Position numbers and translations under genes: made by a program
The notes under the pieces: model-generated
Databases searched by the model: none
Told to the model about the DNA's origin: nothing
The model's input: only the letters and a program-made list of their open reading frames with translations
Assembly: GCA_021836035.1 (NCBI GenBank)
Contig: JAKBJL010000003.1
Location: 132,135-196,134 of the forward strand
Length of the DNA stretch: 64,000 nt
Direction of reading: 5' to 3'
From: a bacterium
Lineage (GTDB): Bacteria > Patescibacteriota > Microgenomatia > JAMCZE01
In this document: piece after piece, positions 6,155-54,952 of the stretch
Layout of the letters: each line of letters starts with the position of its first letter
Numbering within the stretch: position 1 is the first letter of the stretch

Positions 6155-6155
6155 A

Positions 6156-9818: not shown

Positions 9819-9846
9819 AAAATTATAATTGGATAAATAGGATGTT

Positions 9847-9897: not shown

Positions 9898-9924
9898 CGC
9901 TAACCATTACTTTTCTCAAATTAA

Positions 9925-10830: not shown

Positions 10831-10895
10831 ACCGAAGCGAGTAACGTTAAACGGTTAGCATATAGACCGTATAAACGCTTTACGCTTTTTGCTAT

Positions 10896-11198
10896 TTACT
10901 GTTTCAGTGCTTGTAGCATCTCGCGGAGTGTCTTGGGGCGGTATTCTTCCTGCTCTTTTTCCTGTTTTTTCTGGACTCTGACGGCTTTTATGGCCGCGGC
11001 GTTCTTTTGTTTCGCCTGGAATTTTTCAATTTTTCCGACCGTATCGACAAATTTTTGTACACCAGTATAAAACGGATGGCATTGGCTGCACAATTCCACA
11101 TGAATGACGGGTTTTGTTGAGCCCACACTAAAGGTATTGCCGCAGGCGCAAATCACCTTAGCATCAGGATAATATTGAGGATGGATTCCCGGCTTCAT
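10896..11198 (-). CDS. rpmE: 50S ribosomal protein L31 with a C-terminal extension
   Basis: [10 protein letters not shown]…ICACGNTF…[10 protein letters not shown]. Confidence 0.85.
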
Positions 11199-11367
11199 AT
11201 TGTGCCTATTATACTATATTAGTGAGCTAAAATCACTAATAAATTTAAATTTAATATTTTTAATGAGTATCCGCCTACGACAGGATCTGAAATAACAAAT
11301 AGTTTTTCAGAAAGAGGCAAAATGCCCCTTCATTTCAAATCCGATCTGAGCGGATTAAAATTAAAAA

Positions 11368-12276: not shown

Positions 12277-13523
12277 CCGATGATTAATTTTATGGCTTCC
12301 GGAAGGGCCAGGGTTTGTTGCGATTTAGTAGCCAGGTCTTTTAGGGTAACGAGATTTTTTTCTGCTTCCTCTGGACCGATAATTACGGCAAACGGAATAC
12401 CTTTAGCATCGGCATACTTCAATTGCTTATCCAATTTTACTCCCGGATCAGGATAAATTTCCGTATTCAGGTCGTTGATACGCAGGGCGGAAGCGGTTTC
12501 CAGCGATTTATCAAGCAGCGACGGGGAAAAAACGGTAACCAGGATACGGGTCGGCATTTTAGGAATATTTGGCCAGAGATTAAGTTCCTGAATGACGTCT
12601 ACAATACGGTCCAAGCCAAAACTATAACCTACCGCCGGTAAATCCATTTCGGTAAATTGGCCAATTAGCTGATCATAACGACCGCCGCCGCCAAGCGAAC
12701 CGATTTTAGGCTCCGTCACGCTGGTCTCAAAGATAACACCGGTATAGTAATTTAAACCGCGGGAAAGGATTGGGTCAAAGCGCAGGTATTCAGGCGGTAC
12801 ACCCATTTTTTCCGCCAAGTTTAAAATTTCCTCCAGGTTCTTATCCGGTTTATTGTTGTAAAGATTTTTCAGCAGGAGATCGACTTTTTCCTTGTCGATC
12901 ATTTTGGAGGTTAATTCTTTGCGGATTTCCGCGAAGGGTTTTTTGTCCAGCTTATCTAGGGACTGGATTACCGGCAGGTATTTTTCCTCGGGGATATTGC
13001 AACTGTGCATATAAGCAAATAATACTGTGCGGCTGTTCACGCGGATAATAAAGTTAGCAAAACCAAGAGATTTAAGGCATTCGAAGATAATGGCCAGGAT
13101 TTCCGCGTCAGCCAGGGGAGAATTGGTCCCGAAAGTGTCAATGTCGCACTGGGTAAACTCCCGATAGCGGCCTTTTTGCGGCTTTTCCGCACGGTAAGCC
13201 GTCTGAATTTGATAGCGCTTAAAAGGCTTAGGAAGGGCGGGGTATTGGGCAACTACCCGGGCTGCGGGGATAGTTAAGTCATAACGCAAGCCGACATCCC
13301 TTTGTCCCTGATCACGGAAAAGATACATCAACTGTTCCGCTTCCGGTCCGTATTTTCCCAAAAGAATATCCTGATATTCCAGAGCGGGGGTTTCCAGAGG
13401 GGAGAAACCGTATTTTTCAAATATCCGGGCGAAAGTGGTGATCACTTTTTGCCGGATGAGGAGAGTCTCCGGCAGAAAATCCCGAAATCCGGGTAAGGTC
13501 CGCGGCTCAATTTTTCCTACCAT
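12273..13523 (-). CDS. hisS: histidyl-tRNA synthetase
   Basis: Class II motifs: GFRDFLP, YQIQTAYRAEKPQKGRYREFTQCD, GGGGRYDQL; anticodon-binding C-terminus. Confidence 0.9.
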   Translation of the reverse strand: MVGKIEPRTLPGFRDFLPETLLIRQKVITTFARIFEKYGFSPLETPALEYQDILLGKYGPEAEQLMYLFRDQGQRDVGLRYDLTIPAARVVAQYPALPKPFKRYQIQTAYRAEKPQKGRYREFTQCDIDTFGTNSPLADAEILAIIFECLKSLGFANFIIRVNSRTVLFAYMHSCNIPEEKYLPVIQSLDKLDKKPFAEIRKELTSKMIDKEKVDLLLKNLYNNKPDKNLEEILNLAEKMGVPPEYLRFDPILSRGLNYYTGVIFETSVTEPKIGSLGGGGRYDQLIGQFTEMDLPAVGYSFGLDRIVDVIQELNLWPNIPKMPTRILVTVFSPSLLDKSLETASALRINDLNTEIYPDPGVKLDKQLKYADAKGIPFAVIIGPEEAEKNLVTLKDLATKSQQTLALPEAIKLIIG

Positions 13524-20150: not shown

Positions 20151-20300
20151 TTTAGGGTTCTGGTAACCGCTTTTCCCGGAAAGACATCCTGCCGCGCGGC
20201 AGTTTTAAAGGTTTCTATATTTTTTACTTTTTCCTGATTTTATAAAAAGAGGGGGGCAAGCTGCGCCTATCCGGGTCCTCTGCGATTGCCACACAATTAA
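20151..20300 (+). repeat. intergenic inverted-repeat element, copy D
   Basis: TAGGGTTCTGGTAACCGC … AAAAAGAGGGGGGCAAGCTGCGCCTATCCGGGTCCTCTGCGATTGCCAC. Confidence 0.35.
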
Positions 20301-20380
20301 AGTATTTGTAAATATTTGTATATTACGAATTTGTATATTATTCAAATAAATTTTCCCCTGAACCTGATAAAATACTGTTA

Positions 20381-27301: not shown

Positions 27302-27423
27302 ATGTTAACCAAAACACCTTTTATCCTGGGCCGGAGCCATCTGAGCCTACAGACGTCGTCTGGCGAAGCTGAATAAAAACCTATCTCAAGGCTCTATCCC
27401 AAATTTGTGCCTGATTTCTTGAA

Positions 27424-27460
27424 GCTCTGGATGGAAGGTACCGAACCTTTTACGCACAAA
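27424..27460 (+). repeat. recombinase-like 3-prime-end remnant repeat R1 (degenerate: GC--TCTGGATGGAAGGTACCGAACCTTTTACGCACAAA)
   Basis: Aligns to R2-R5. Confidence 0.6.
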
Positions 27461-28147: not shown

Positions 28148-28230
28148 AAATTTATTGTAACAGAAGGTTCTTCCATTCAGCCATGAGATACTTTGGTATA
28201 GAAGCTAGGTAAGAATTTCTTCAGAAGAGT

Positions 28231-28295
28231 TTAGTGAACTATGTTTGCAACTACTACCGGGAAAATTATTCCAAGTACTAATGGTTACTATTGCG
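28231..28295 (+). repeat. second-type remnant repeat (≈80 % identical to 42997..43062, the 3-prime end of ORF 42709..43068)
   Basis: …TTTAGTGAACTATGTTTGCAACTACTACCGGGAAAATTATTCCAAGTACTAATGGTTACT… versus …CTTGGTGAACTACGTCAGCAACTTCTACCGGGAAAACTGTTCCAGTTACCAATGGTTACT…; the local copy carries a stop. Confidence 0.55.
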
Positions 28296-28362: not shown

Positions 28363-28987
28363 ATGGCCAAGCTAGTTTCAACTAATCCCTCCAAAAATTT
28401 CGAAAAAATTGGTGAAGTCGATATTTCTTCTGAAAATGAGATTGCCGGAAAGGTTAAGAAGGCAAGGGAAGTCCAGAAGAGCTGGGGAAGTTTATCCGTA
28501 AAAGAACGGGTAATATACCTGCAAAAGGTATATGACCTTTTTGAAAAGCACCGGGAGGAACTTGGAAAGCTTGTTGGTGACGAAATTGGGATGCCATTGT
28601 CTGTGAGGGATTCTATGGAAATCGGAGCCGGTCAAGATTACTTCAAATGGTATTTGGAGAATGCGGAAAAATCTCTGTCACCGGAAATAACTCATGAAGA
28701 CGAAACCTCGCAAAGTAAGGTTTACTATGAACCTACTGGTGTCGCTGCTGTAATATCCCCCTGGAATTTTCCTTGGATTGGGAGGCTATCTTTTTACAGA
28801 GGATAAAATGTCAGCCAGGAGAGAAGCCTCAAAGATAAAGACGGGGATGATCGGGATTAATAACACAACTTACCTTCATCCGGCTAATCCATGGGGAGGA
28901 TATAAGAAATCAGGGCTGGGAAGGGGGAATGGAAAGTTTGGTCTTCGAGGGGTATCACAAATAAAGGTTGTTACTCTTGAAAAATAA
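28363..28987 (+). pseudogene. aldehyde dehydrogenase remnant: N-terminal ~147 aa joined out of frame to C-terminal ~60 aa; catalytic core (~270 codons) deleted
   Basis: N-fragment ends with the ALDH motif VYYEPTGVAAVISPWNFPW; C-fragment has GINNTTYLHPANPWGGYKKSGLGRGNG (the PFGG-K-SG-GRE region); the Cys/Glu catalytic region is absent. Confidence 0.75.
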
Positions 28988-29133
28988 TAAGCAAGGTGGG
29001 AGGAAAACACCTTCGGTTAGCTCCGCCAAGGCGAAGTCGAACAAACGCGAGTTGATAAATCAGCTCGCTTCGTTCGTCCTGTGAACTCGCTTGAAACAAA
29101 ATATCCCGAGACAAATGCCCGGGAATTTTGTTT

Positions 29134-29174
29134 GCAGCCCTGGATGGAAGACATTCGAACCTTTTACGCACAAA
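29134..29174 (+). repeat. recombinase-like 3-prime-end remnant repeat R2 (GCAGCCCTGGATGGAAGACATTCGAACCTTTTACGCACAAA)
   Basis: Encodes …REFCLQPWMEDIRTFYAQN… in an otherwise unannotated open frame (29021..29209). Confidence 0.65.
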
Positions 29175-29183
29175 ATGCTCTTT

Positions 29184-30356
29184 TTATTTGGAAAGGCTGG
29201 GTTGGTTAAGAAGGTAATACATTACACTGTAAACTTGGGTTATTCCTTCTGACCGCCAAGTGTTTAGTTTGCTTTTTGTCGTAGTATTTGTTCTTCGTTC
29301 TGCCAGAAAAACTAGTGTTTTTCCTATAAAAGTCTCAGCTTTTACCGGAACTCTCAAACCATAATAATTCTCAGTTTTTCCTTGGCCGCTAAGAAAATCA
29401 CCCACTCTTGCGTTGTTCATAGCAAAAATATTTCCAATTCTAGAATAGACTCGAGGGCCAAGACCCATAAAATCTACACCGTTGTTCATAAGTTTTCTTT
29501 GTGGTGCGTCCTTTTCTCTGCTAAAACCATAGGTACCTGTTTGGTTATATCCACATGTAACTAAATAATTTCTGGCCATGTCGTACATTTGATGCCGTTC
29601 ATGTAATCCCGGCCGACGCATCACTCCTTGGTTTATGAGATTCCTGCTTCTGGCGCCATAAGCATTGACATATTGAAACAAGGTAATTTCAGGCGGGTTT
29701 ACTTCTTCGACAACTCTAATTAAAGTATTTTCTAAACTTTGTTGTGTTTGATTCGGGGTACCAAACATGAGATCAATGTTGTAGGGTACACCGATTTGAT
29801 TTAAATTTTGAAGAATCTGAACTTCCTGTTGTGCCGAGGTAATATTCCGATCAAGACCCTGCCTTTCTTGATCTGATAAATTTTGAACTCCCAGGCTTAA
29901 TCTGCTTACCCCTAAGGCTAAAAGTCCCAATACATGATTTTCGGTAGCGTTTTTGGGGTGTAGTTCGAAAGTTATTCGGGCACCGTTGGTTTCCACATTT
30001 TGGCGAACATTAGCTAGAAGTTGATCGGCTTGACCTAGGGTTAAAAGTCCGGATGTCCCGCCTCCAAAGTAAACCGAAGTTATTTTTCCCCGGCCGACTT
30101 GTGGTAGGACAGTATCAAGGTGTTTTGAAAACGGTCCGATGTACCCTTCAATTTTTTCGGGACTGGCGGTTGTTCGGTGGAAGGCACAAAAAGAACAAAC
30201 TTGTTCACAAAACGGAATGTGGACATATAAAGCCAATCCTTTGCCAGCAGAGCGTCCAACCTCTCTTTGTTGGTTCATTTCTGCCAATCTAATTGGTTTT
30301 AGCCTGCCTTTAATAGTTTCACCTGCTAGCATGTGTAGCGCGTATTCACAATCCAT
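29184..30356 (-). CDS. radical SAM protein, HemW/HemN family (oxygen-independent coproporphyrinogen-III-oxidase-like)
   Basis: CEQVCSFCAF (CxxxCxxC), VYFGGGTSG (the GGGTP motif of HemN), 390 aa. Confidence 0.75.
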   Translation of the reverse strand: MDCEYALHMLAGETIKGRLKPIRLAEMNQQREVGRSAGKGLALYVHIPFCEQVCSFCAFHRTTASPEKIEGYIGPFSKHLDTVLPQVGRGKITSVYFGGGTSGLLTLGQADQLLANVRQNVETNGARITFELHPKNATENHVLGLLALGVSRLSLGVQNLSDQERQGLDRNITSAQQEVQILQNLNQIGVPYNIDLMFGTPNQTQQSLENTLIRVVEEVNPPEITLFQYVNAYGARSRNLINQGVMRRPGLHERHQMYDMARNYLVTCGYNQTGTYGFSREKDAPQRKLMNNGVDFMGLGPRVYSRIGNIFAMNNARVGDFLSGQGKTENYYGLRVPVKAETFIGKTLVFLAERRTNTTTKSKLNTWRSEGITQVYSVMYYLLNQPSLSK

Positions 30357-30392
30357 AAGTGCTTTATATACAAATAATGCTAAAATTGATAT

Positions 30393-31172
30393 ATGGGTGC
30401 TTTGACAGTAGCTTCACTAAACACTTTTGGAGGAGTGGTTGATATTTACAATTTGGCCCTTCGTTATAAAGCCATTGCTGATTACTTTAACTCTTCTACG
30501 GTGGATGTTATTCAGTTCCAAGAGGTTTTTACCTATTTGCATTTAGCATTATTTAAATATTTTTTGTCGGGGTATCAATATTGTCAGTTTCAAGCATCAT
30601 ATATGGGGCCGAAGGGTGGGCTAGTAACATTTTCTCGACACCAATTGATAAAACACCGTCATATTAACTACTCCCGTCACTTTGTCCCTTATTTAGGAAA
30701 GTCCATAATTGAGCTTTTTACCCAACGAGGGTTGTTGATAACTGAAATTAAGGGTTTTAGTGTGGCCTTAATTAACACCCATTTGACGGCGGTTCTTAAC
30801 GCCGATTGGAGCCAAAAAAGTAAATATTACAAAGAGCTAAGTTCTGAAATTAACGAATTTCACCAGTTGGTTAACGATGAGTCACTTAATAAAATCGGAA
30901 TTGCGACCGGGGACTTTAATACTGCCAAGGGTAGTGATTTATTTTGGCAGTTGATAAGTTGTCCAAGGCTAAATGATCCGTTCGAAAAAGATGAGCTTCC
31001 TACCCGGCATCAATGTTTTGCTGCCCTTGGTCGTAAAACCAATTGTGTTGATTATATTTTTGTTTTTGGTGATAAATCGCTGTACAAAGTTAAAGAAAAT
31101 AAGCGTATTTTTACGGAAAGGCCTTATGCTTCTGACCACATTGGACTTCAAATTTCTTTAACTCTTTCCTGA
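30393..31172 (+). CDS. endonuclease/exonuclease/phosphatase (EEP) family protein
   Basis: ASLNTFGG…VIQFQEV, TGDFNT, SDHIGL: the catalytic E, GDFN and SDH motifs of the EEP superfamily. Confidence 0.7.
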   Translation: MGALTVASLNTFGGVVDIYNLALRYKAIADYFNSSTVDVIQFQEVFTYLHLALFKYFLSGYQYCQFQASYMGPKGGLVTFSRHQLIKHRHINYSRHFVPYLGKSIIELFTQRGLLITEIKGFSVALINTHLTAVLNADWSQKSKYYKELSSEINEFHQLVNDESLNKIGIATGDFNTAKGSDLFWQLISCPRLNDPFEKDELPTRHQCFAALGRKTNCVDYIFVFGDKSLYKVKENKRIFTERPYASDHIGLQISLTLS

Positions 31173-31948
31173 GCTTGTTCGTATAACAAATAATCTTTTT
31201 CGTGAAACTGTTGAAACCGTCGTAGGAAATCGTGTTCATATGTTGGGGAAGATTGACGAAATTGTGGGGTGCGGTTTAGCCACTTAACTTGGTGTCGACC
31301 CATCTCTTTTCTCGAAACAAAACCGCTATTTTGCAGACAGCGGATCAATTTTTGAGCAAAGGCGTCGAGTTCGTTTGTGACTCCAACCACAGCAAAAGCA
31401 TGGAGGTCTTTTCCGCCTAATGCTTGGGTTTGATAATTTTGAAGTTGGGGCAATAAAGCGTAATCTTCAAAAGTTAATGCCGAATCGAACGGTATTCTTA
31501 CCCGCCATTCAGTGATACCTTTTGTTCTTTGCCAATGAGTATATTGCGATTCCATTCTTTCTAAAGGGTCACGGATGACAACGGCAGAGATAGGGTTGGT
31601 AATCAGTTGGTCAAAGCGATTTGCAGCAAAATGGCCGTGAATTGCGGCGAAATTGTCGGGTAAATTTGTGACCTGGATAACTTTAGGTTTTAGTACCCCA
31701 TCGATAAGTACTTGGTAAGCTTTATTTATAAGGGGAGCAAGGGGGGTGTTAGCAATTCTTAACCGGAGAGCATCGTGCACCCGATTTGTTCGTTGAACTT
31801 TAAGATCGGCGGACCTAGTTAATGTATCCCGAATAGGGTCGTATATGAGTACTCTGTTTTTTCCTAAAACCGACTCTAACAAATCTTGGATTGATGTCCC
31901 GGCAGTTTTTTCAATATGGACGCTTAATACGCGACTTTCAACTGGCAT
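31148..31948 (-). CDS. sulfotransferase-family protein
   Basis: VHIEKTAGTSI (5-prime-PSB H-x-P-K-T-G-G-T-like) and VVIRDPLERMES (RDP motif). Confidence 0.6.
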   Translation of the reverse strand: MPVESRVLSVHIEKTAGTSIQDLLESVLGKNRVLIYDPIRDTLTRSADLKVQRTNRVHDALRLRIANTPLAPLINKAYQVLIDGVLKPKVIQVTNLPDNFAAIHGHFAANRFDQLITNPISAVVIRDPLERMESQYTHWQRTKGITEWRVRIPFDSALTFEDYALLPQLQNYQTQALGGKDLHAFAVVGVTNELDAFAQKLIRCLQNSGFVSRKEMGRHQVKWLNRTPQFRQSSPTYEHDFLRRFQQFHEKDYLLYEQAQERVKEI

Positions 31949-31981
31949 ATAAATATCCTATAATATGAATTATATATCAAT

Positions 31982-32650
31982 ATGCCTGAGAATCAAAATG
32001 ATAAGTACCTTTGTTTACCACGAAGAAGCCCTCAAGAATGGCTAAGGGGAAAATTCCATGTAGATACAGAAAATATTCCCCGGCTTGTTTATCCTTTGGC
32101 TAAATTTATCCACGAAGAAAAACCGGATTATGTTTTAGCCATCGACTCCGGTGCACGAATTACTGGTCTTGCGTTATTTGCTTTTTACCACGAACTATAT
32201 GGAGAGTTACCTACAAAAGACCACCGGATTCACTTTCGTAAGATTTCCCATAGTTTTCCGGCGGAGGTGGTAAGGCGTCAACTGAAACCAGATATTTGCG
32301 AAGTAATGTCTTCAAGTGAATCACCGTTGTTATTTGTTGTTGATGATTGCGTCAATACAGGAACAACAACGCTGATGTTGCGATTATTAGTTTCTGAATT
32401 ATCTGAGGGAAAAGTCCGGCTTAAAATTGGAGTAATGCGAGAGTTTTTGGCCGGAGTAACAGATGTAAGGGGTGATACTTTTAGTCTTGCCAGAGCCACA
32501 TGGCGAAACAACTCGCAATTGATTGGAGTGGAATATACTGACAAGATTATCCCGCATGTTATGCGAACAGCCGAGGCCGCCAATTTAAGAAGAGAAATAT
32601 TTACCAATGTCAGAGGCTTTGCGTCCAAAATAAAAAGCAGGCAAATATGA
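31982..32650 (+). CDS. phosphoribosyltransferase-domain protein (type I PRTase)
   Basis: PRPP-binding loop LLFVVDDCVNTGTT. Confidence 0.6.
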   Translation: MPENQNDKYLCLPRRSPQEWLRGKFHVDTENIPRLVYPLAKFIHEEKPDYVLAIDSGARITGLALFAFYHELYGELPTKDHRIHFRKISHSFPAEVVRRQLKPDICEVMSSSESPLLFVVDDCVNTGTTTLMLRLLVSELSEGKVRLKIGVMREFLAGVTDVRGDTFSLARATWRNNSQLIGVEYTDKIIPHVMRTAEAANLRREIFTNVRGFASKIKSRQI

Positions 32651-34743
32651 AGAATGAAATTATAAATTATCGGGGATGTATCCACCCACTTGTGCCGGAT
32701 GTACTTAATGTTTGTCATGAGCAATTAACTGAAGCCCGGCTAAGAAACGGAGTTATTTTTGGTAAGGATCAAGGAATAGAATTACCAGTAAACGCTTTAA
32801 TTAGTGAAATAATAAAATTGCAGGAAGCCTATGATAGTCGATTAGCGTTAGCCATTATAGATCGGAGACTGCCAGCTGAATCAGTACCGCTTTTAAGACA
32901 AACTGCTAAAGTCTTAGAAAATAATAAAGCAGTAGTTGTTAACAAGTTTGCGTCTGGATGGCTAGAGAACGGCTGTGGTGATCAAGCCACACAATTAACA
33001 GCACACAGGCTACTTCACCTACTTTCTTTATCCGATACTCCACATTTGTTGGACAAATATAGTCTGGAAGTATCACCCACTCAGGGAATCTTTATTGTAC
33101 CGTCTGAAACTGATGGAATCTTGAAAGAAACATTGGCCCTTTTGCCGTTTGCAAAAAATGTTGTTGGTTTTCAAGTTAGACAAAACGGATCTGACAGGAT
33201 AGTAACTTTATTTGTAAACGCCGATGGTAAAAATTTAACTAGGACTGAAATTAAGGTCGATGGAAAAGACAAAGCGGCCATGGCTAAAAATAAAAAAACC
33301 AAAAGAATATTGATAGCTGTGGAGGGTGATATTGCCGGACATGCCGTGAGGGCATTAGAAACAGCTAGGGGTTTAAGAAGACTGGACTATGAACCGACAA
33401 TCGTTGGTAGCGGTTATTATGCCCGACCGTTTGTTGAAGAAGGTTTCAATTGTCTGCCACCGTTTAATACCGAGCAAACAGCTGAACGGGATCGTATTAT
33501 TACCCAGGCTAGAGGAGAAGGTAAAGGATTATTTTTCTGGGATTTTGATACTGTCAAAAAGCGCGTAGAAGGTTTCAAAACATCACTAAGGGGTTATGTT
33601 CAATCCGGTGTAGATCTTTTTCTTTGTGATATGAACCCAATTGTGGACATAGCCGTTAGTCATCTTCAAAAAGAAACAGGTAGAACTTTTCCAAAATTAA
33701 CCGAAACGCACAATATTCTTTTGTCAGCAACCAGAAGTTTACGAGCACTTAAAGTTGGCGGGATCTCGATGGGAGAATATCTTTACAAAGTCAATGGTTC
33801 AAGGGTATTAAAATTAATGGATCCAAAGGGTTTTCGTTTTGCGGCTACCCATTTTATTTTTAATGAAATTGCCGATGTGGTTATGGGTTTACCGCTTTCG
33901 GTCTATGAACGGCTTCACGGAGGCAGCGGATCGAGAATAAAATTTACTGATTACATGTACGGAAGAGACGGCACCCTACAGTTTTGTTTTAAACCAGACA
34001 GTAGGAACACAAAATCTTATCCGGTCGGCCTTCAGGCTGATAGGGGAAAAACCGATGGTTCTGATCGAGATCATTGGGAAGCAGAAATCCCAGCAGACAA
34101 AGCCTTTGTCTTAAACTCTCAAGGAAGTACATATCATAAGAAAGCTTGGGATACCGTAGTCGACGGATTAGCAGAAACTCCGACTTTATTTTCTGTTCAT
34201 GTCACAGGAATTAAAGAAGATCAGCCGTCTCCATTGGGCGGTTCAGAAGTGACCGGTTATAAAGTTGGTTATGTGGCTGGTTATAGAATGGCACAAAGAG
34301 CCGATGTTGTAATTAACCACGGCGGGTTTGGAACAATTTCTCAGTGGCTAATGGCTACAGCGGATAGAATTTGTGAAGAACGACAAATACTGGACCGGAT
34401 AGTTCAAGCTGGGTCTCCAGATGAAGTCCCCGCCTTTTTAATGTCCTGCCGCGGAATTTCCCGTTCACTTTCACTTTGCAATACTTTTGAGCAGGAAAAT
34501 AATTCCCGTTCGTTAAACGAAGTTGGTGGAGACCATGTTTGTACGGTCACAACGGCTGATGCTCTGTTGCAAACTACTGATCCAAAGGCAGAAATAAGAG
34601 AAAAAGTTGAGATGTTACTAACTGATCCGGTAGATAATCAAGAACGGGAGTTTTGGCTTGATCTGGTGAAATATGAAGCTACCATGAACGCACCGATACA
34701 CGCTGCCCTTATTTTGGAGAGGATTATGATGACAGGTAAATAA
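32647..34743 (+). CDS. large GT-B glycosyltransferase (GT1/GT28-like) with a ~220-aa N-terminal extension
   Basis: N-lobe RILIAVEGDIAGHAVRALETARGLRRLDYEPTIVG (the G-x-x-GH of MurG/UGT) and C-lobe ADVVINHGGFGTISQWL (the HGG-G-T nucleotide-sugar motif). Confidence 0.5.
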   Translation: MKNEIINYRGCIHPLVPDVLNVCHEQLTEARLRNGVIFGKDQGIELPVNALISEIIKLQEAYDSRLALAIIDRRLPAESVPLLRQTAKVLENNKAVVVNKFASGWLENGCGDQATQLTAHRLLHLLSLSDTPHLLDKYSLEVSPTQGIFIVPSETDGILKETLALLPFAKNVVGFQVRQNGSDRIVTLFVNADGKNLTRTEIKVDGKDKAAMAKNKKTKRILIAVEGDIAGHAVRALETARGLRRLDYEPTIVGSGYYARPFVEEGFNCLPPFNTEQTAERDRIITQARGEGKGLFFWDFDTVKKRVEGFKTSLRGYVQSGVDLFLCDMNPIVDIAVSHLQKETGRTFPKLTETHNILLSATRSLRALKVGGISMGEYLYKVNGSRVLKLMDPKGFRFAATHFIFNEIADVVMGLPLSVYERLHGGSGSRIKFTDYMYGRDGTLQFCFKPDSRNTKSYPVGLQADRGKTDGSDRDHWEAEIPADKAFVLNSQGSTYHKKAWDTVVDGLAETPTLFSVHVTGIKEDQPSPLGGSEVTGYKVGYVAGYRMAQRADVVINHGGFGTISQWLMATADRICEERQILDRIVQAGSPDEVPAFLMSCRGISRSLSLCNTFEQENNSRSLNEVGGDHVCTVTTADALLQTTDPKAEIREKVEMLLTDPVDNQEREFWLDLVKYEATMNAPIHAALILERIMMTGK

Positions 34744-34746
34744 AAT

Positions 34747-35583
34747 ATGAAACAAGCAGAAAATCTTTTCAAGCAGGTACCATATACGGGCATTCCCATG
34801 TTAGCCAGATTAGGAATGTCTTTGTTAGAGGCTCCGGGCGGAGCTATTACTTTTGGCGACCGGATACGAAATAGGGGTATCTTGTCCACTAGTGAAGCAC
34901 AGTCAATTTTATTTGAAGCAGTAGATCGGTTAGACGGAGCTCTAGCTGACAATTTAAAAAGCTCTCCCAGAATTGGGAAATATCTGGGACGGGGTTTCGA
35001 AGCCACTGTGTTTGCTTTAGACACGAAAGACGGCAAATGGGTTATGAAGATTGGTTTGCCAAAAAGTTGCGTTCCTGGGATTTATTCGCCGTCAACTGAT
35101 AAATATGCTGCTATGATGAAGTGGAATTATACTGTTCTTCAAAAAACGTTTTCCAGAGGACTACCACATATGCTACCGAACCCATACTTTGTTGTTACCC
35201 CAAGCGAATTGGGTCGAGCTACGACGGTTCAATTTCTCCCATATGTAGAAAAGATCGCAGACATGGATGTTTTAACAGCGGTTCAAAAATTGCATTTAAT
35301 TGAAGAAAGGCAAAAATTTTACGATACTTCGAAGTTGCTAATTGCAAAAAATAGAGTCATGCCGGATTTGGTCGGACCTAGAAATCTTATTTTAGGCATG
35401 GTGGAAAATGACCCGCATTATCATTTGATAGATCTTGGATTATTTCATCTCCGTGCTCCAACGCCGATACTTAATTTGCTGGTTTATTCATTCCAAAGAG
35501 CATCATTAATAAAAGATGTCAGTACATTGAAGTGTCAAGCACCCCTTTTGTTGCACACACTTTCTCTAAACAAAACGGCTTGA
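34747..35583 (+). CDS. atypical protein-kinase-like fold protein (Kdo/LPS-kinase/RIO-like)
   Basis: YLGRGFEATVFAL…KWVMKIG (Gly-loop and VAIK-like Lys), PDLVGPRNLIL (catalytic loop D…N), HLIDLGLF (DFG-like). Confidence 0.45.
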   Translation: MKQAENLFKQVPYTGIPMLARLGMSLLEAPGGAITFGDRIRNRGILSTSEAQSILFEAVDRLDGALADNLKSSPRIGKYLGRGFEATVFALDTKDGKWVMKIGLPKSCVPGIYSPSTDKYAAMMKWNYTVLQKTFSRGLPHMLPNPYFVVTPSELGRATTVQFLPYVEKIADMDVLTAVQKLHLIEERQKFYDTSKLLIAKNRVMPDLVGPRNLILGMVENDPHYHLIDLGLFHLRAPTPILNLLVYSFQRASLIKDVSTLKCQAPLLLHTLSLNKTA

Positions 35584-35951
35584 GAGTGGGAGCGACAGGT
35601 AAACGGATAGAAAATTGGATTGATAATTCGGATAAGGCTCTCCAGTTTGCGGTTCAAACCCGCTACACATTCGCTAATGGCAGTATTGCAGATAAACGGG
35701 ACATATTGGCCACCATTGGATCGAACCTAATTTTGGAAGATGGAAAGTTGCATTGCAAAGCCCAAGGTCCATATTGCTTCCTGGAAGAGATTGTAAAAGT
35801 GGAGCCGACAGCTTCAGCAGAGTTCGAACCTGAGAAGCAGGGTATATCAACAGCCCAATTGGAGACTTTGTGGATTCAAAATCCATCTGTGCAGCCCTGG
35901 ATGGAAAACCTTCGAACTTTTTGTGCCCAAAACTATCTTTTTGTCGAATGA
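35532..35951 (+). pseudogene. C-terminal remnant of a large-serine-recombinase-like gene (…SNLILEDGKLHC…QPWMENLRTFCAQNY); contains repeat R3
   Basis: Aligns with the tails of 42709..43068 and 2063..2632; 5-prime end overlaps the preceding gene. Confidence 0.4.
35891..35932 (+). repeat. recombinase-like 3-prime-end remnant repeat R3
   Basis: GCAGCCCTGGATGGAAAACCTTCGAACTTTTTGTGCCCAAAA. Confidence 0.65.
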
Positions 35952-38870: not shown

Positions 38871-40136
38871 TTAAATAACTCCAACGATTTTTGGTTCCGG
38901 TTGGCCGGCTAGTGGTTCGGTTTTTGGTAGATGCTCTTTAAGTTTCAATGAATACGGAAGTAGAAAAAATGCTATTAAGGGTAGAAATCCAATTAATAGA
39001 AAAGTTAATCTCAAAGAGTGATCGGCCGCAAAACCAACCATCGGATTGGCGATGGCAAAGACTAGGGTTTTCAGAGTAGAAGTCGCGGACAGAATCGTAG
39101 CTCTTTGTTCCGCGGGAATAAATTCATTCATCGTGGTATTCATAAAAGATGATCTTGTTGAGGCTAATCCACCAACCAAAATTATGGCTATAACTACCGT
39201 AACTACCGATGGATAAATTGCAATAAAAATAAGTGTGGCCGAGACAATGATTGCTGTCAGATTAACAAAGTTTTTTTCGGAACCAAAGATTCTTTCTGTA
39301 ATGTGGATATTAAAAGTTGCCGCAGTTGCGGCTAAGGAAAAGGCAGACCTAATAAATCCAAAGTAAATAATGGCTAAACCAACTTTAACTAGCATTGGTT
39401 GGTAAAGCCAAATAAGAAAATAAGCACCGATCCAGACGAGGATATCGCTAGCAATTAAATAAAGAACTGTCTTATTCTTCAGAAGTATTGAGATTCCCAT
39501 TTTGCTGGTATTTATTAAGTCGTGACGAGAAAAGACTTTTTGCGTTTTCGGTTCGTCAACCGTCAAAATGACAATTGCGGCTATAAATAAGGGAATAGCT
39601 GAGATAATCATTGGCGCGCGAAGTCCAAACTGGGCCGCAATAAGGCTACCAACCGGTGCGGCGACAATGGTTCCCAGGTTACTAAATGATGAGGATCGAG
39701 CTAATACTTTTTTGCTTTCATTATCTCGACCCGACCTTTTCAGGTAATCGTAAACTAGGGCACTACTGGCACCTACCACAAACGAAGTTCCCAGGGCCGC
39801 CAAGAATTCAGCAAAAAGGAACAGATAAAAATTGGGGATTAGGACATAAACCACACTCGAAATTGCCAGGATAAAACCCCCAAGACTAACTGAGACTTTC
39901 CTTCCCAAGTGATCGGCAAGAGCTCCTGTTGGGATATTAAGGACAAACATCCAGATCATGAGCCATGATTGAAGAAATTGCACTTGGGTCAAATTCAAGT
40001 GGCCCCATTCGGTATAAAAGGGAACTAGAACTGAGACGTAAAACATTAAGCCACTAAAAAAGGTGGCTAAATAGTAACGAAAGACGAACCCTGAGGGGTT
40101 TAATTTCTGCCAAATGTCATGCACTTTACTTCTCAT
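38871..40136 (-). CDS. MFS transporter
   Basis: 12 predicted TM helices, 421 aa, MFS-like loop motif (GALADHLGRK). Confidence 0.75.
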   Translation of the reverse strand: MRSKVHDIWQKLNPSGFVFRYYLATFFSGLMFYVSVLVPFYTEWGHLNLTQVQFLQSWLMIWMFVLNIPTGALADHLGRKVSVSLGGFILAISSVVYVLIPNFYLFLFAEFLAALGTSFVVGASSALVYDYLKRSGRDNESKKVLARSSSFSNLGTIVAAPVGSLIAAQFGLRAPMIISAIPLFIAAIVILTVDEPKTQKVFSRHDLINTSKMGISILLKNKTVLYLIASDILVWIGAYFLIWLYQPMLVKVGLAIIYFGFIRSAFSLAATAATFNIHITERIFGSEKNFVNLTAIIVSATLIFIAIYPSVVTVVIAIILVGGLASTRSSFMNTTMNEFIPAEQRATILSATSTLKTLVFAIANPMVGFAADHSLRLTFLLIGFLPLIAFFLLPYSLKLKEHLPKTEPLAGQPEPKIVGVI

Positions 40137-40647
40137 TGGCTAAGTCTCGACTTATCTTATCGACGCACTCTTTAAGCGATAAACGTTCAGTGTCGAGGAT
40201 TATAGCCCCAGGGTAATCTGTCTTCTCAAGATGTTCGAAAATATCCTTGATCTTCTCATCGCCCATTGGTTTACGACACCCTTCTTTAATTCCGGGTCTA
40301 GTTCTGTCTCTCTCCTGAAGCGTCGATAGAGAGCATTTGATTTGATAGACAAGGACTTTTATACCTCTTGTCTTAGCTGATTCAACGGCCATAGGAATAA
40401 TGAATGGATCGTAGAAGATTTTTTCCATAACAACCGAAAAGTTATGATCCAGTAGGTAATTAAGTGTTGCCAAAGCGCTTTCGTCGACAAACTTCTGTTC
40501 CTCCGGAGTGACATCGGTGGAAAAGAAGTCCTTGAAATTATCAACCTTGAGCCAGACTACCCTTTTTTCAAAATTTCGTAATTCTCTGGAGATAGTTGTT
40601 TTCCCGCTTGCTGGGGCACCCCGAATAATTACTAAGAATTGTTCCAC
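40126..40647 (-). CDS. P-loop kinase (AAA_33/chloramphenicol-phosphotransferase-like fold)
   Basis: Walker A IIRGAPASGKTT at the N-terminus; 173 aa. Confidence 0.55.
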   Translation of the reverse strand: MEQFLVIIRGAPASGKTTISRELRNFEKRVVWLKVDNFKDFFSTDVTPEEQKFVDESALATLNYLLDHNFSVVMEKIFYDPFIIPMAVESAKTRGIKVLVYQIKCSLSTLQERDRTRPGIKEGCRKPMGDEKIKDIFEHLEKTDYPGAIILDTERLSLKECVDKISRDLANEK

Positions 40648-41257: not shown

Positions 41258-41409
41258 TACATCAAAATCTTTGCCCACATGGCGGACACAAACAGCCCCG
41301 TACTTATTCAGACAGAGAGAGTAGGTTTTCTACTAAAATATCCTGATAAGTTTGATTCCAGTTGGGCGTTGATTTATTTTGATATAGAAACTAGGCACGA
41401 ATTTTGTTG

Positions 41410-41447
41410 GCAGCCCTGGATGGAACACATTCGAACTTTTTACGATC
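41410..41447 (+). repeat. recombinase-like 3-prime-end remnant repeat R4 (inside small ORF 41279..41473, …RHEFCWQPWMEHIRTFYDQ…)
   Basis: GCAGCCCTGGATGGAACACATTCGAACTTTTTACGATCA. Confidence 0.65.
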
Positions 41448-41456
41448 AGGTGAAGA

Positions 41457-42299
41457 TTATTTCCTTACAATAACTCTTTCATTTATGGGGGGTGTTACTT
41501 CCTCTGATGGGTCGGGCAGTTCAAAAGTCTCGGGATTATAATCGTCGTCCTGTTTTGGTATCTTTCCGAAGATAGCATATTTTTCCCCATTATAATCGAT
41601 TGTCTCAGACAATCTTTGCCAATAATCGTGAGTCTGGTTCTCTCCGATAGGATCTTCATCTATATTAGAAAGGACATAAAATCTTCCACTTTTTTTATTA
41701 ATCCAATGAGCCTCAAAATATACGGCATTTTCCGTCTCTTTTAAATCACCGGGAAGATTTAACTGGGTAACAGGTACAAACCTCTCATTGCCACCACCGA
41801 CATCAGAGCCTTCATAGAGATGGATTACTAAAGAATCCAAACTTCCTTGAAGTTTATCTGCATTTTCGAGGGGGATCAGATGCAAAACTAAGACGTAGTG
41901 TGCTTCGAAGAATTGATCTTCGGCTTCTTGAGCCAAGGATTCTTCTCGTAACTCCTTCGGTGTATCCTTATGGGTGGGATTAAGTAGTTTAAACATGGGG
42001 GAACGGGCTATTGGTATGTATATTTGCAGGTAATAGCCTGGACTTCTTAATCTACCGATTGTAGCTTCTGTGTCGCCAAATGAAATTTCTTTTGATTGCG
42101 GATCGTGGAAATGAACCGTGCTGTTCAAATCCCCAGAGCTATAATGTCTGGCCAATTCTGCTTGTACACTACTGTAAGAAAGCTCCCTATATGTCTGAGG
42201 TGATTGAGAAAGACTCAAGAAGATAGGAGTCAACCCTACCAGATCATCAGGCGGGGGATATTCAGGAATATGTGGTCGAGGGAATTTTTCTTTGGGCAT
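41457..42299 (-). CDS. hypothetical protein
   Basis: 280-aa ORF; no motif recognised. Confidence 0.5.
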   Translation of the reverse strand: MPKEKFPRPHIPEYPPPDDLVGLTPIFLSLSQSPQTYRELSYSSVQAELARHYSSGDLNSTVHFHDPQSKEISFGDTEATIGRLRSPGYYLQIYIPIARSPMFKLLNPTHKDTPKELREESLAQEAEDQFFEAHYVLVLHLIPLENADKLQGSLDSLVIHLYEGSDVGGGNERFVPVTQLNLPGDLKETENAVYFEAHWINKKSGRFYVLSNIDEDPIGENQTHDYWQRLSETIDYNGEKYAIFGKIPKQDDDYNPETFELPDPSEEVTPPINERVIVRK

Positions 42300-42347: not shown

Positions 42348-42388
42348 TGCAGCCCTGGATAGAAAGTATTCGAACCTACTGCGCTCAA
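42348..42388 (+). repeat. recombinase-like 3-prime-end remnant repeat R5
   Basis: GCAGCCCTGGATAGAAAGTATTCGAACCTACTGCGCTCAAA. Confidence 0.6.
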
Positions 42389-42427
42389 ATTCAGGTATTT
42401 GCTACTATTGTTTGACCTAAAATTATT

Positions 42428-42708: not shown

Positions 42709-43068
42709 TTGTATAATACTAAATCGGTCGAAATCGAGAGAGAGAAAGATGAAGTTATCGCCGAGATAGCAAAACACAAAACTACGGATCGTGCGTATCA
42801 AGCGGATATTGGGGGATTTTTAACTTTTTGTAACGAAGCTCCAACTTTATTCAAAAGTTCGAGACCTGCTCTAAAACGGGAGCTTTTGAGATTTGTCGTT
42901 TCGAACCTTATTTTGAAAGACGGAAAGCTCGATATTACGCTCCGTTTGCCATTCAACATAGTCGCAAAGTATGCCAAAAATGAGAATTGGCAGGGCTTGG
43001 TGAACTACGTCAGCAACTTCTACCGGGAAAACTGTTCCAGTTACCAATGGTTACTTACTCCCAATTAA
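42709..43068 (+). pseudogene. C-terminal remnant of a large-serine-recombinase-like gene (…ALKRELLRFVVSNLILKDGKLDITLRLPF…NWQGLVNYVSNFYREN…)
   Basis: 119 aa with no catalytic N-terminus; the tail aligns with 35532..35951 and 2063..2632; 3-prime end ≈80 % identical to 28231..28295. Confidence 0.4.
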
Positions 43069-51272: not shown

Positions 51273-51284
51273 ATTATTTTAACT

Positions 51285-51442
51285 TAAGGGTCCTAGCAAC
51301 CAGCAGCCCCATTCAAGCTATTTTGTTCATACGAACAGCTTGGTCACTTTCTTTTTAGATGAAGGCCTTCTCTTCTTGCGAAAGAAGGGGGGTTCATCCG
51401 CTTAACGGGGCTCCCCGCCTGTTGCCACCCTTTCTAAAACCA
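51285..51442 (+). repeat. intergenic inverted-repeat element, copy B, immediately upstream of efp
   Basis: TAAGGGTCCTAGCAACCAGCAGCCCC … GCGAAAGAAGGGGGG … GGGGCTCCCCGCCTGTTGCCACCCTTTCTAAAACC; closest match to copy A. Confidence 0.55.
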
Positions 51443-51465
51443 AAGTAATCAGATAAAATCGGATT

Positions 51466-52631: not shown

Positions 52632-53894
52632 GGCATGGAGATAATTAGACGTGTAGCTATTATTGACGTTCTGAGAAATGCCCGTTTCCGTTTTCTCTGG
52701 TTTGCTCAGGCCAGTTCCCAAATCGGTATCAATATTTTGACCTTTGCCCTGGCTCTTCGGATTTACGAACTAACCCACAAAAATACTGCCGTTTCGATAT
52801 TGGCTTTAACCGTTGCCATTCCGGCTTTACTTTTCGGAGCTGTCGCGGGAACTTTAGTGGATCGCTATGACAAAAAAATGGTTCTGTTTTTCTGCAACCT
52901 TTCCCGGGCAGTGGCGGTTTTGGGTTTTCTTTTAACCCGCGAATCTATATTTTTTATTTATCTTTTGTTAATCGCCATTTCTGTTATCACTCAGTTTTTT
53001 GTCCCGGCGGAAGCGCCGACAATCCCGCTTTTGGTGGAGAAAGAAGATTTGCTTTCCGCTAACGGTACCTTTACTTTAACAATTTTTGCGACCATGCTTG
53101 CCGGGGGATTGCTGGCCGGTCCGCTACTTGATCTTATCGGTATCGACCGAACCTTTCTTTTTATCGCGCTACTTTTTGGGTTAGCATCTTATTTCATTTC
53201 CCGGTTACCGGGACAAACCGCCCTTTCTTTTTTGCAAAGAAGGAGCCGCAATTTTCATCCGGAGGACATTTTTGTAGCTTTAGAAAACGGCTGGATGTCC
53301 CGGTTGAAACAGGAATTTTATGAGGGTATCGATTTCTTACGTTCGCACAGGAAAGTGCGTACGGCGTTACTCATCCTCGTCGGGTCGCAAACGGTAGTCG
53401 CTTCTATTTCCAGCTTATTACCGGGTTTCGCCGACCAGGTGGTTAAAATTCCCATTAATGACGCCTCAGTATTTTTATTGGGTCCGGCAATTTTAGGCAT
53501 TATTTCCGGAGCTCTTTTTGTTTCCCAATTCGGCCATTTCCTTTCCCGCGATAAAATAATCAATAGCGGTATTTTTTGTGTCGGCTTGTTTCTCCTGCTT
53601 TTAGGGTGGGGTAGGACAGTCGGCTTGGCTCAATTTTTTCTTTTTGCTCTCGGTTTTTCCAATGCCTTAATTGATGTTACTTCCAACACCGCCCTTCAGG
53701 AAGGAACGACAGAGGCGGTCCGGAGCCGGGTTTACGGCGTTTTAACTTCGCTGGGCGGTGCTTTTTTTATTCTGCCGATTATATTTTCCGGTATTCTCTC
53801 AGATATTTTAGGTGTCGGGGAGGTATTGATGATCTTCGGAGGGTTGATAATCGTTGTTTGGCTGGTTAAAATCGGGAAAGTCCGGCTTTTATGA
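52632..53894 (+). CDS. MFS transporter
   Basis: 12 TM helices; probable start MEIIRR at 52632 (the ORF track starts at 52515). Confidence 0.7.
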   Translation, partial: GMEIIRRVAIIDVLRNARFRFLWFAQASSQIGINILTFALALRIYELTHKNTAVSILALTVAIPALLFGAVAGTLVDRYDKKMVLFFCNLSRAVAVLGFLLTRESIFFIYLLLIAISVITQFFVPAEAPTIPLLVEKEDLLSANGTFTLTIFATMLAGGLLAGPLLDLIGIDRTFLFIALLFGLASYFISRLPGQTALSFLQRRSRNFHPEDIFVALENGWMSRLKQEFYEGIDFLRSHRKVRTALLILVGSQTVVASISSLLPGFADQVVKIPINDASVFLLGPAILGIISGALFVSQFGHFLSRDKIINSGIFCVGLFLLLLGWGRTVGLAQFFLFALGFSNALIDVTSNTALQEGTTEAVRSRVYGVLTSLGGAFFILPIIFSGILSDILGVGEVLMIFGGLIIVVWLVKIGKVRLL

Positions 53895-54952
53895 AACCAC
53901 TAATTGCTTTCGGTGGAACGGTTTTACCCACATTCGGTATAGCTTTAGCCCTGGCATTTGTCGCCGGTTTTTTCCTGCTCTGGAAAACAGCGCGGAAAGA
54001 GGGGTTTAACGAGGAAAAGATTATCGATATGTTGCTTCTGGCCGTTTTTACGGCTCTCGTTGCCGGGAGAGCTTTTTATATTCTCTTTAACCCTTTTGTT
54101 TTTACCGGTGACCCCGGTCGCTGGTTTTTACTGATTAAGTATCCGGGAATTTCCTTTTTCGGCAGCCTGATCACGGGTATTTCCGTTCTCTTTCTTGCGG
54201 CTAAAGCGGAGAAATTAGAAACCGGTAAAATTTTAGATTTATTCGCTCTTCCCATGACTTTCGCGACGGCGATCGGTTTTGTGGGCTGTTTCTTGAATGG
54301 TTGTTTTCTGGAAAACAAGTTAGCAACGCTACCGTTATATCTGGCGTTTCTGTTTCTCTTTCTTTTCACCGTCCAGTATTTTCTATGGAAAAGAGTAACC
54401 TTGACTCCGGATATCCGGGAAATTATAGACAAGCCCGGAGCCCTTGCCATGTTTTATTTAATCTTGATCAGTATAATTAACGTCCTACTTGAAAAAAATA
54501 CAGGAAGCAGGCTATACTTGCTTTGGCTGATATTTCTTAGCGTTTCTTTTTTAGTATTCCTAATCAGCTTTCATAAATTAGTCAGAACTATGGTCAAGTT
54601 CCCGCAAACCGTGTTAGTCCAGATTAAGCAGTATCTTGAAGACCGCCGGGCGCAGACGGAACATCGTTTGGCGGATCTGAAAACGGAAGACCCGTTTGCT
54701 GATCAAAGCCGCCTGACAGATAATGCTGCCGACGATACGGAAGCGCATGAAAAAGCCGGGCATGAAAGAACCCAAGCTTTAATTGCCCAGTTAAATACGG
54801 TTCTTATTCAGACTCGCAAAGCTCTGACTAAAATTAAAATCGGTAAATACGGCACCTGCGAAAGATGCGGCAAAATGATTGATACCGACCGGCTGGCGGC
54901 CATACCGACGGCTACGCTCTGCTTAAGCTGCGAAAAAAAGAAAGAAAAGTAA
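53891..54952 (+). CDS. lgt: Lgt-like prolipoprotein diacylglyceryl transferase membrane domain fused to a C-terminal DksA/TraR-type C4 zinc finger
   Basis: The N-terminal ~270 aa aligns with Lgt (IAFGGTVLPTFG…, GRAFYILFNPF…DPGRWF…SFFGSLITG, …LNGCFLENK); the C-terminal ~90 aa has …ALTKIKIGKYGTCERCGKMIDTDRLAAIPTATLCLSC (C-x2-C-x17-C-x2-C). Confidence 0.55.
   Translation: MKPLIAFGGTVLPTFGIALALAFVAGFFLLWKTARKEGFNEEKIIDMLLLAVFTALVAGRAFYILFNPFVFTGDPGRWFLLIKYPGISFFGSLITGISVLFLAAKAEKLETGKILDLFALPMTFATAIGFVGCFLNGCFLENKLATLPLYLAFLFLFLFTVQYFLWKRVTLTPDIREIIDKPGALAMFYLILISIINVLLEKNTGSRLYLLWLIFLSVSFLVFLISFHKLVRTMVKFPQTVLVQIKQYLEDRRAQTEHRLADLKTEDPFADQSRLTDNAADDTEAHEKAGHERTQALIAQLNTVLIQTRKALTKIKIGKYGTCERCGKMIDTDRLAAIPTATLCLSCEKKKEK

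Follow-up and report, generated by a model that had tools for sequence, protein, structure and literature searches.

The window analysed here, a 64,000-nucleotide (nt) stretch of contig JAKBJL010000003.1 from a member of the Microgenomatia (Patescibacteriota, JAMCZE01), carries a set of five genes encoding a phosphoesterase of the endonuclease/exonuclease/phosphatase (EEP) family, a sulfotransferase-like protein, a type I phosphoribosyltransferase (PRTase), a glycosyltransferase (GT) and a kinase of protein-kinase fold, for which there is a strong comparative case as one functional unit. The unit appears to be horizontally mobile, and our preferred explanation, to which we give a probability of roughly 0.4, is that it specifies a mobile cytoplasmic sugar-tailoring pathway making a soluble, decorated glycoside. 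An initial annotation of the window had described six co-localised genes between remnant repeats; six intact open reading frames (ORFs) were indeed found within 29184-35583, the motifs quoted for them (CEQVCSFCAF and GGGTSG; QEV, GDFN and SDH; HIEKTAGTS and RDP; VVDDCVNTGTT) were all present in the translations, and the copies of the repeat were found on either side. The sixth gene, encoding a radical S-adenosylmethionine (SAM) protein, appears to be a passenger.

Relatives of the GT are rare, with only 8 clusters among 5.8 billion proteins, and these clusters, together with four loci from genome and metagenome scans (two of which re-find sampled genomes) and two short contigs, make up the loci compared, with co-occurrence counted over 9 distinct GT-bearing loci. 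In every locus with enough flanking sequence, the PRTase and kinase genes either adjoin the GT gene or are fused to it, while an EEP orthologue is found in seven of the nine and a sulfotransferase in six. The window's order and orientation, with the EEP gene on the plus strand, the sulfotransferase gene on the minus strand and the PRTase, GT and kinase genes on the plus strand, recur in L001, L004, L007/L013 and L014; in L009, genes for a HAD-like hydrolase and a polyprenyl synthase lie between the sulfotransferase and EEP genes. At least five other genomes thus share the gene order. From locus to locus, the five proteins lose identity in step (~58-66% in L001, 51-61% in L004, 37-48% in L009), and an all-against-all comparison of the flanks found no other gene family in common among the loci. 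Natural fusions join the PRTase to the GT (P0007, 889 amino acids [aa]) and the GT to the kinase (P0005, 976 aa), and in the window the stop codon of the PRTase gene overlaps the start of the GT gene (ATGA). Synteny, parallel divergence and fusions thus argue strongly for a single functional unit, in which the PRTase, GT and kinase, being translationally coupled and fused pairwise in relatives, would act together on one substrate or in one complex. Two of the metagenome-assembled genomes (MAGs) that bear the cassette are titled Gammaproteobacteria and Pseudomonadales, and in the latter (L016) the GT homologue is split into ORFs at 9216-10532 and 10610-11281, explicable by a frameshift or pseudogene or else by faulty assembly. 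A plasmid collection searched with the GT and the kinase gave no match.

The co-conservation implied by the initial annotation therefore stands for five genes and not for the radical SAM gene, which tblastn found only in assemblies of the same genome (L011/L012). The protein matches Pfam Radical_SAM (E 1.3e-13) and has the CxxxCxxC cluster motif as CEQVCSFC; its best NCBIfam models (STM4012, ChuW/HutW and HemW) score 124-138 bits against cut-offs of 205-400, so that an equivalog-level score for HemW, HemN, ChuW or STM4012 was not reached. The gene lies inside the repeat bracket, with a GC content at third codon positions (GC3) like that of the rest of the low-GC island around it. Since it does not accompany the cassette in other genomes, we drop it from the functional set as an apparent passenger specific to the window genome.

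The enzyme superfamilies first proposed for the six proteins all held when Pfam, NCBIfam, PDB profiles and Foldseek were consulted, with structures predicted for the GT and the kinase, and all five core proteins keep the catalytic residues of their own superfamilies. In scans against Pfam, NCBIfam, PADLOC and PHROGs, only Radical_SAM, Exo_endo_phos and, weakly, Sulfotransfer_2 were recognised among the six proteins; curated family models recognise no part of the cassette beyond the EEP and the radical SAM protein. These catalogues likewise gave no match for the combination, nor was a description found in literature searches, in line with the initial annotation, to which it was not familiar as a described cluster.

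For the GT, a protein of 698 aa, the AlphaFold model (pLDDT 74) returned only GT1 enzymes among its top 50 PDB matches in Foldseek (E 8e-11 to 3e-8, probability 1.0), among them the elaiophylin GT, EryCIII, GtfD, CalG1 and OleD-type GTs, and UGT-like GT1 matches were obtained against viral structures. GT1 enzymes are marked by an N-terminal catalytic His in G-x-x-G-H and by a C-terminal donor-binding H-G-G-x-G-T...(D/E)-Q-x-x-N-A, and GDIAGH (with H232), HGGFGTISQWL and CNTFEQENNA are invariant in an alignment of 8 GT sequences. The model and motifs together identify residues ~220-698 as a probable GT-B, GT1-type glycosyltransferase. The cassette GT shares the GT-B fold, catalytic His and HGGxGT...EQ..NA motifs with the elaiophylin GT, EryCIII, GtfD, CalG1-4, OleD and the baculovirus ecdysteroid UGT, but differs from them in its low identity (10-16%), its missing Pfam match, its 215-aa N-terminal domain, an insertion of ~115 aa and its fusions to PRTase or kinase. 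No Pfam model was matched at E<=0.01, including those of UDPGT and Glyco_transf_28 type, PDB sequence and profile searches gave nothing significant, and the best NCBIfam score (MJ1255/VC2487) was 15.8 bits against a cut-off of 195.9. Residues 1-215, already singled out as an unfamiliar N-terminal domain, have no relative in the PDB profile search or in Pfam (8 N-terminal domains scanned), and residues ~354-471, which form the insertion, are poorly modelled by AlphaFold.

In the PRTase-like protein, the PRPP (phosphoribosyl pyrophosphate) loop reads LLFVVDDCVNTGTT and the PPi (pyrophosphate) loop DSGAR, and D121, D122, T126, G127, T129 and D55-S56-G57-x-R59 are invariant in the alignment. A PDB profile search aligned residues 27-149 (123 positions, spanning both loops) with the purine PRTase 1vdm of P. 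horikoshii at E 7e-4, while no match was found in NCBIfam or, at E<=0.01, in Pfam, Pribosyltran (PF00156) included; the protein is best described as a divergent type I PRTase. The EEP protein scores 29.3 bits for Pfam Exo_endo_phos (gathering cut-off 24.5), and its catalytic set (N10, E44, H130, D174/N176 and D248-H249) is invariant in the alignment. Its top PDB profile match is the uncharacterised EEP 3teb (E 7e-6), and its closest characterised PDB relatives are SMPD2 (neutral sphingomyelinase 2, 8j2f), beta-haemolysin and SMase C, which places it, as far as profiles can tell, in the sphingomyelinase-like branch of the superfamily. For the sulfotransferase-like protein, Sulfotransfer_2 was matched below threshold (16.7 bits against a cut-off of 22, E 0.0086), and the 5'-PSB loop SVHIEKTAGTS, an HGH triplet and the 3'-PB motif RDPLERMxS are present; SVHIE(K/R)TxGTS, HGH and RDPLxRMxS are invariant and in canonical order across 6 sequences. 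Its HGH...RDPxERxxS region aligned with heparan sulfate 2-O-sulfotransferase (HS2ST) in a PDB profile search (E 0.06), and a PHROG Gal-3-O-sulfotransferase was matched at E 0.055. A carbohydrate O-sulfotransferase of HS2ST/Sulfotransfer_2 type, dependent on 3'-phosphoadenosine 5'-phosphosulfate (PAPS), is probable.

The kinase had been called Kdo/lipopolysaccharide (LPS)-kinase-like, of which the protein-kinase fold and the catalytic residues stand. Its AlphaFold model (pLDDT 81) matched CK2/CK1 and other kinases in the PDB at E ~1e-5 (Foldseek), and alignments show a conserved Gly-loop GxGFE, K101, catalytic loop D207...N213 and Mg-binding D229 (DxG), consistent with a minimal protein-kinase-fold kinase. 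No PDB match was obtained by sequence or profile search. A profile search of 1.84 billion representatives gathered 59 clusters, 17 of them below 1e-30, and no Pfam match was found for any of 49 family members scanned; the family thus appears to be previously undescribed and without a Pfam relative. Because the window kinase, like these 49 members, has no Pfam match to the Kdo/LPS-core kinase family (PF06293; KdkA, WaaP), and the fold speaks only at superfamily level, membership of the Kdo/WaaP family is not supported and the name is one of analogy, verifiable only to the protein-kinase fold.

More distant kinase relatives (29-31% identity) lead to sister cassettes. In L019, an EEP-kinase pair lies beside two Glyco_transf_9-like GTs; L022 encodes two kinases, an EEP, a GT9-like GT, a GT2, a SIS/PGI protein and an AP_endonuc_2 TIM barrel; and L023/L024 have the arrangement EEP-kinase-GT9-like GT. 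The EEPs of these cassettes are 35-41% identical to that of the window, and an EEP adjoins all distant kinase relatives with enough flank. Because GT-B, kinase and EEP are common to sister cassettes whose GTs belong to the heptosyltransferase family (Glyco_transf_9-like), these three would form the older recurrent module, in a sugar-phosphate setting, and the PRTase and sulfotransferase appear to be additions specific to the GT1-type branch to which the window belongs. The AP_endonuc_2 TIM barrels of L008, L010 and L022 resemble sugar-phosphate isomerases/epimerases, not endonuclease IV. A DNA function for the cassette, with an Endo IV-type nuclease taking the place of the EEP in L008 and L010, was considered and ruled out, as the barrel is isomerase/epimerase-like and in L022 occurs together with an EEP.

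None of the six proteins has a transmembrane or hydrophobic segment or a signal peptide, all are predicted to be soluble, and the loci have no transporter, flippase, polyprenyl-phosphate transferase or ligase conserved alongside the cassette, which together argue for cytoplasmic chemistry. Taken with the small-molecule GT1 fold and the PRTase fusion, the same observations favour a soluble small-molecule acceptor. From the chemistry of their families, the five enzymes could be arranged as follows. The type I PRTase would join PRPP to a nucleophile, possibly a nucleobase-like ring, giving a 5-phosphoribosyl adduct; the GT1-type enzyme would transfer a sugar from an NDP-sugar to this adduct or to its acceptor; the kinase would phosphorylate a sugar hydroxyl at the expense of ATP; the EEP would remove a phosphate or cleave a phosphodiester, the PRPP-derived 5'-phosphate and the phosphate installed by the kinase being candidates; and the HS2ST-like enzyme would O-sulfate a sugar from PAPS. 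Such chemistry would yield a ribosyl-glycoside bearing phosphate and/or sulfate, similar in make-up to glycosylated, sulfated nucleoside metabolites. A nucleotide-sugar-like small molecule had been offered in the initial annotation as the alternative to a surface glycan; in view of the GT1 fold and the PRTase fusion it is at least as likely, with the part given to the radical SAM protein dropped.

However, several points weigh against a soluble glycoside. The order of steps is conjectural, as are substrate, donor and product; the scheme gives no part to the first 215 residues of the GT or to its insertion at 354-471; and the constant pairing of kinase and phosphoesterase is not uniquely explained by it. 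The sulfotransferase assignment consists of sub-threshold matches and motifs, enzymes of HS2ST type are usually directed at polysaccharides, and neither the 64-kb window nor any of the loci showed a gene for PAPS synthesis. A P-loop kinase of 173 aa at 40126-40647, considered as a PAPS-supplying APS kinase, was ruled out as Zeta-toxin/chloramphenicol phosphotransferase (CPT)-like. Finally, the GTs of the sister cassettes are of the GT9 family, with a GT2 in addition in one of them, and characterised members of both families act on LPS cores, proteins or polymers, so that a glycan acceptor is favoured.

This last point leads to the alternative first proposed, decoration of a surface glycan or glycolipid. 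In this scheme, a cell-envelope glycoconjugate (a glycolipid, teichoic-acid-like polymer, LPS-core-like glycan or S-layer glycan) would be modified at the cytoplasmic face, with the GT adding a sugar, the kinase phosphorylating it as WaaP/WaaY do heptose, the sulfotransferase sulfating it and the EEP remodelling phosphodiester substituents. The inner-core heptoses of LPS are phosphorylated by WaaP/Y working with WaaC/F/Q, and the sister cassettes, where Glyco_transf_9-like GTs (and in L022 also a GT2) accompany kinases and EEPs of these families, mirror this combination of GT9, kinase and phosphatase. The EEP is closest to lipid-headgroup phosphodiesterases, a PLD-family gene adjoins the GT in L010, and the sulfotransferase resembles glycan sulfotransferases. 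However, an envelope pathway finds no direct support in the cassette itself, whose proteins are all soluble and whose GT has its nearest folds among small-molecule GT1 enzymes rather than polymer or LPS GTs; no membrane protein, flippase, polyprenyl-phosphate transferase, ligase or ABC/Wzx exporter, nor any other export or lipid-carrier gene, is conserved in the more than nine loci, and we know of no role for a PRPP-dependent type I PRTase in envelope glycan decoration. We regard the envelope as a less likely destination than a soluble product, yet as a serious contender in view of the sister cassettes and of the likeness of the sulfotransferase and EEP to glycan- and lipid-directed enzymes.

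Inactivation of a xenobiotic or antibiotic is more doubtful still. Here, glycosyl, phospho, sulfo and phosphoribosyl transfer would each serve to neutralise a toxic small molecule, as might suit a cassette that is mobile and patchily distributed, whose GT has its closest GT1 folds among macrolide and glycopeptide GTs (OleD-type resistance GTs included) and which adjoins an island segment encoding an MFS transporter and a P-loop kinase resembling Zeta toxin and chloramphenicol phosphotransferase. Kinase-fold enzymes include antibiotic phosphotransferases, among them those for aminoglycosides and macrolides. Yet the cassette kinase has no similarity to the APH/MPH families, the hydrolytic EEP, its most constant partner, would have no role, and three different transferases that are strictly co-conserved, translationally coupled and fused are more readily understood as taking consecutive steps towards a single product than as alternative means of inactivation, leaving this an improbable explanation.

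Anti-phage defence or nucleic-acid modification, with the EEP as nuclease effector and the PRTase, GT and kinase modifying nucleotides or DNA, draws on the mobility and rarity of the cassette and on its defence-island-like surroundings in L001, where it lies beside genes for an N6_N4 methyltransferase, a ResIII helicase and an RNase_H_2-like protein. PRTase-domain toxins do occur in defence systems, ShosTA being one. However, the cassette proteins have no PADLOC or PHROG match, neighbours in the other loci are unrelated and not of defence type, the sister cassettes carry sugar-phosphate isomerases and heptosyltransferase-family GTs, and the EEP resembles sphingomyelinases more closely than it does nucleases; we consider this very improbable. 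That six unrelated genes simply accreted in the island is scarcely credible: the radical SAM gene is not co-conserved and the region, a mosaic, contains pseudogenes and remnants of repeats, but the other five genes have stayed in the same order and orientation amid unrelated flanks, have diverged in parallel and have yielded fusions, by which chance juxtaposition is excluded for the five-gene core.

The nearest known parallels to a soluble glycoside pathway are the nucleocidin/ascamycin-type clusters of Streptomyces (PMC10946740, PMC8694150), which, like the cassette, combine a type I PRTase, a small-molecule GT and one or more PAPS-type sulfotransferases, there serving one soluble ribosyl compound. 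In the nucleocidin cluster these are the adenine PRTase NucV, the 3'-O-glucosyltransferase NucGT and the sulfotransferases NucK/NucO, acting on a nucleoside (PMC10946740). The likeness is one of composition, and the nuc sulfotransferases are of Sulfotransfer_1/3 type, whereas that of the cassette is Sulfotransfer_2/HS2ST-like. The nuc clusters are also large actinomycete biosynthetic gene clusters with no kinase-fold kinase or EEP, whereas the cassette occupies a compact 5.2 kb in uncultivated bacteria of ~45% GC. A radical SAM protein is likewise encoded nearby in the nuc cluster, whereas the one beside the cassette is not conserved. The LPS inner-core heptose module similarly teams a GT-B glycosyltransferase with an enzyme of protein-kinase fold, which phosphorylates the sugar once it has been transferred, but it combines GT9 enzymes (WaaC/F/Q) with WaaP/WaaY, whereas the window GT is GT1-like and its kinase has no Kdo/WaaP Pfam match; it has no counterpart of the EEP, PRTase or sulfotransferase, and the cassette has no lipid A or Kdo genes. 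Neither comparison amounts to membership. PRPP-dependent ribosylation followed by dephosphorylation is carried out by BtrL/BtrP in butirosin and by TubE/TubG in tubercidin biosynthesis, and the PRTase and phosphoesterase of the cassette could form a similar two-step ribosylation device, although the phosphatase families differ. Removal of a 5'-phosphate cannot be the EEP's only role, because EEPs also occur in sister cassettes that lack a PRTase.

Mobility, which the initial annotation had suspected, is supported by base composition and by the flanks of the cassette. Positions 25.7-44.2 kb of the window have 41% GC against 45% in the flanks, and the cassette genes have a GC3 of 0.31-0.35, against 0.45-0.52 for the genes of DnaB, HisRS, ArgRS and TGT. 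In L004, a 44-nt duplication (7636-7679 and 12942-12985) of the last 14 codons and stop of an upstream 216-aa gene brackets the five-gene core exactly, the two gene ends encoding NTAFAILRSLFEE and NTAFAILRSPFEG, each followed by a stop. In L023, a sister cassette is bracketed by a 354-nt duplication of the 3' end of cysS (83.6% nt identity): full-length cysS (5295-6728) is followed by the EEP-kinase-GT9-like cassette and then by a second copy of the last 118 codons (10247-10624; 83% aa identity), consistent with an insertion that hit the 3' end of an essential gene, with a surrogate gene end in place. A systematic test of flanks found direct repeats in 3 of the 6 testable loci (53 nt in the window, 44 nt in L004, 354 nt in L023) and none in L001, L014 and L016, and Pfam scans found no integrase or recombinase domain in the bracketed segment or in the other loci. 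Low GC3 and the duplicated 3' gene ends at the borders of the cassette in three genomes therefore support horizontal mobility, and the duplicated ends hint at a route of insertion that needs no cassette-borne integrase.

In the window, the bracket is a 53-nt direct repeat, whose two copies at the cassette are given with the cassette genes in the table below.

Features of the cassette region, with positions in the window and the evidence for each assignment
Feature	Position	Strand	Evidence or remark
53-nt direct repeat, left copy (R2 of the initial annotation)	29133..29185	+	encodes ...QPWMEDIRTFYAQN; apparent remnant 3' end of a decayed gene
HemN/HemW/ChuW-like radical SAM protein, 390 aa	29184..30356	-	Pfam Radical_SAM
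EEP-family phosphoesterase, 259 aa	30393..31172	+	Pfam Exo_endo_phos and catalytic set
Probable PAPS-dependent carbohydrate O-sulfotransferase, HS2ST/Sulfotransfer_2 type, 266 aa	31148..31948	-	motifs and sub-threshold matches
Divergent type I PRTase (predicted), 222 aa	31982..32650	+	loops and profile match to 1vdm
GT-B, GT1-type glycosyltransferase (predicted) with unassigned N-terminal domain, 698 aa	32647..34743	+	AlphaFold/Foldseek and motifs
Minimal protein-kinase-fold kinase (predicted), 278 aa	34747..35583	+	AlphaFold/Foldseek and residues
5'-truncated remnant ORF, 139 aa, its final codons being the right repeat copy	35532..35951	+	ORF listing, homologue fragments
53-nt direct repeat, right copy (R3 of the initial annotation)	35890..35942	+	in-window blastn

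The left and right copies are 83% identical (E 9e-8, in-window blastn), and further copies lie at 41409-41461, 42348-42400 and, in part, 27419-27460, all five on the same strand and related by E-values of 4e-12 to 1e-5. All copies encode the C-terminal peptide QPWME(D/N)(I/L)RTF(Y/C)AQN, with synonymous and non-synonymous differences between them. Because the copies share this peptide and the right one closes a truncated ORF, they are most simply read as what is left of the 3' end of a gene that decayed repeatedly, for which the label 'remnant' was apt. The truncated ORF overlaps the kinase-like ORF by 52 nt; its few homologues are all short fragments, one of them annotated Patescibacteria, and it has no Pfam, NCBIfam, PADLOC or viral-contig relative. 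The suggestion that it might be the C-terminus of a serine recombinase could not be confirmed, the homologues being short and without domains and the viral-contig scan empty. Derivation of the repeat from a tRNA 3' fragment was not accepted, as its likeness to the 3' end of the tRNA-Trp at 49124 is gapped and partial.

The arrangement is found in three independent assemblies and is therefore not an assembly artefact, and its surroundings are chromosomal (YchF, RF, HisRS, DnaB, ArgRS, Lgt and TGT). The copies of the 53-nt repeat split the 18-kb low-GC island into segments with unrelated cargo, namely a polysaccharide lyase; the cassette; a TAT-signal protein, MFS transporter, Zeta-like kinase and NUDIX protein; and a 280-aa ORF, which looks like serial insertion at one site. 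Also inside the island is a second direct repeat of 64 nt (28226-28289 and 42992-43055, 81-83% identity), whose order relative to the 53-nt repeat differs between its two sites, and immediately left of the cassette lies an aldehyde dehydrogenase pseudogene with its N-terminal piece at 28363-28806 and its C-terminal tail at 28778-28987.

Elsewhere in the window, a conserved intergenic element of ~170-190 nt occurs in four copies of ~70% identity (5235-5410, 7185-7360, 20160-20335 and 51278-51445), with the common blocks AAGGGTCCTGGCAACC...GAAAGAAGGGGGG...GGGGCTCCCCGC..GTTGCCACCCTT; two copies stand directly upstream of the S41-protease and ArgRS genes. No Rfam match was found and the RNAalifold signal is weak, and these copies may represent a repeat element or else a leader or RNA that has so far escaped recognition. 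At 53891-54952 lies an unusual fusion of an Lgt (prolipoprotein diacylglyceryl transferase) domain with a DksA/TraR C4 zinc finger at its C-terminal end.

For the cassette as a whole, co-occurrence, gene order and fusions argue that a compact, transferable five-enzyme unit makes one product, and the partnership of kinase, EEP and GT-B enzyme offers a testable rule for recognising a new sugar-phosphorylation module. In its most specific form, which we think rather improbable, the soluble product would be a new sulfated/phosphorylated glycosyl-riboside (compare nucleocidin intermediates and adenophostin), made with the help of a new family of minimal kinase-fold sugar kinases and spread among distantly related uncultivated bacteria by integrase-less 3'-end insertion; the cassette would then represent a bioactive small-molecule pathway in bacteria that are not known for secondary metabolism. 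Should the product indeed prove to be a glycoside or nucleoside carrying sulfate or phosphate, a new type of natural product would be added, and the cassette would be evidence that small-genome or uncultivated bacteria exchange such pathways.

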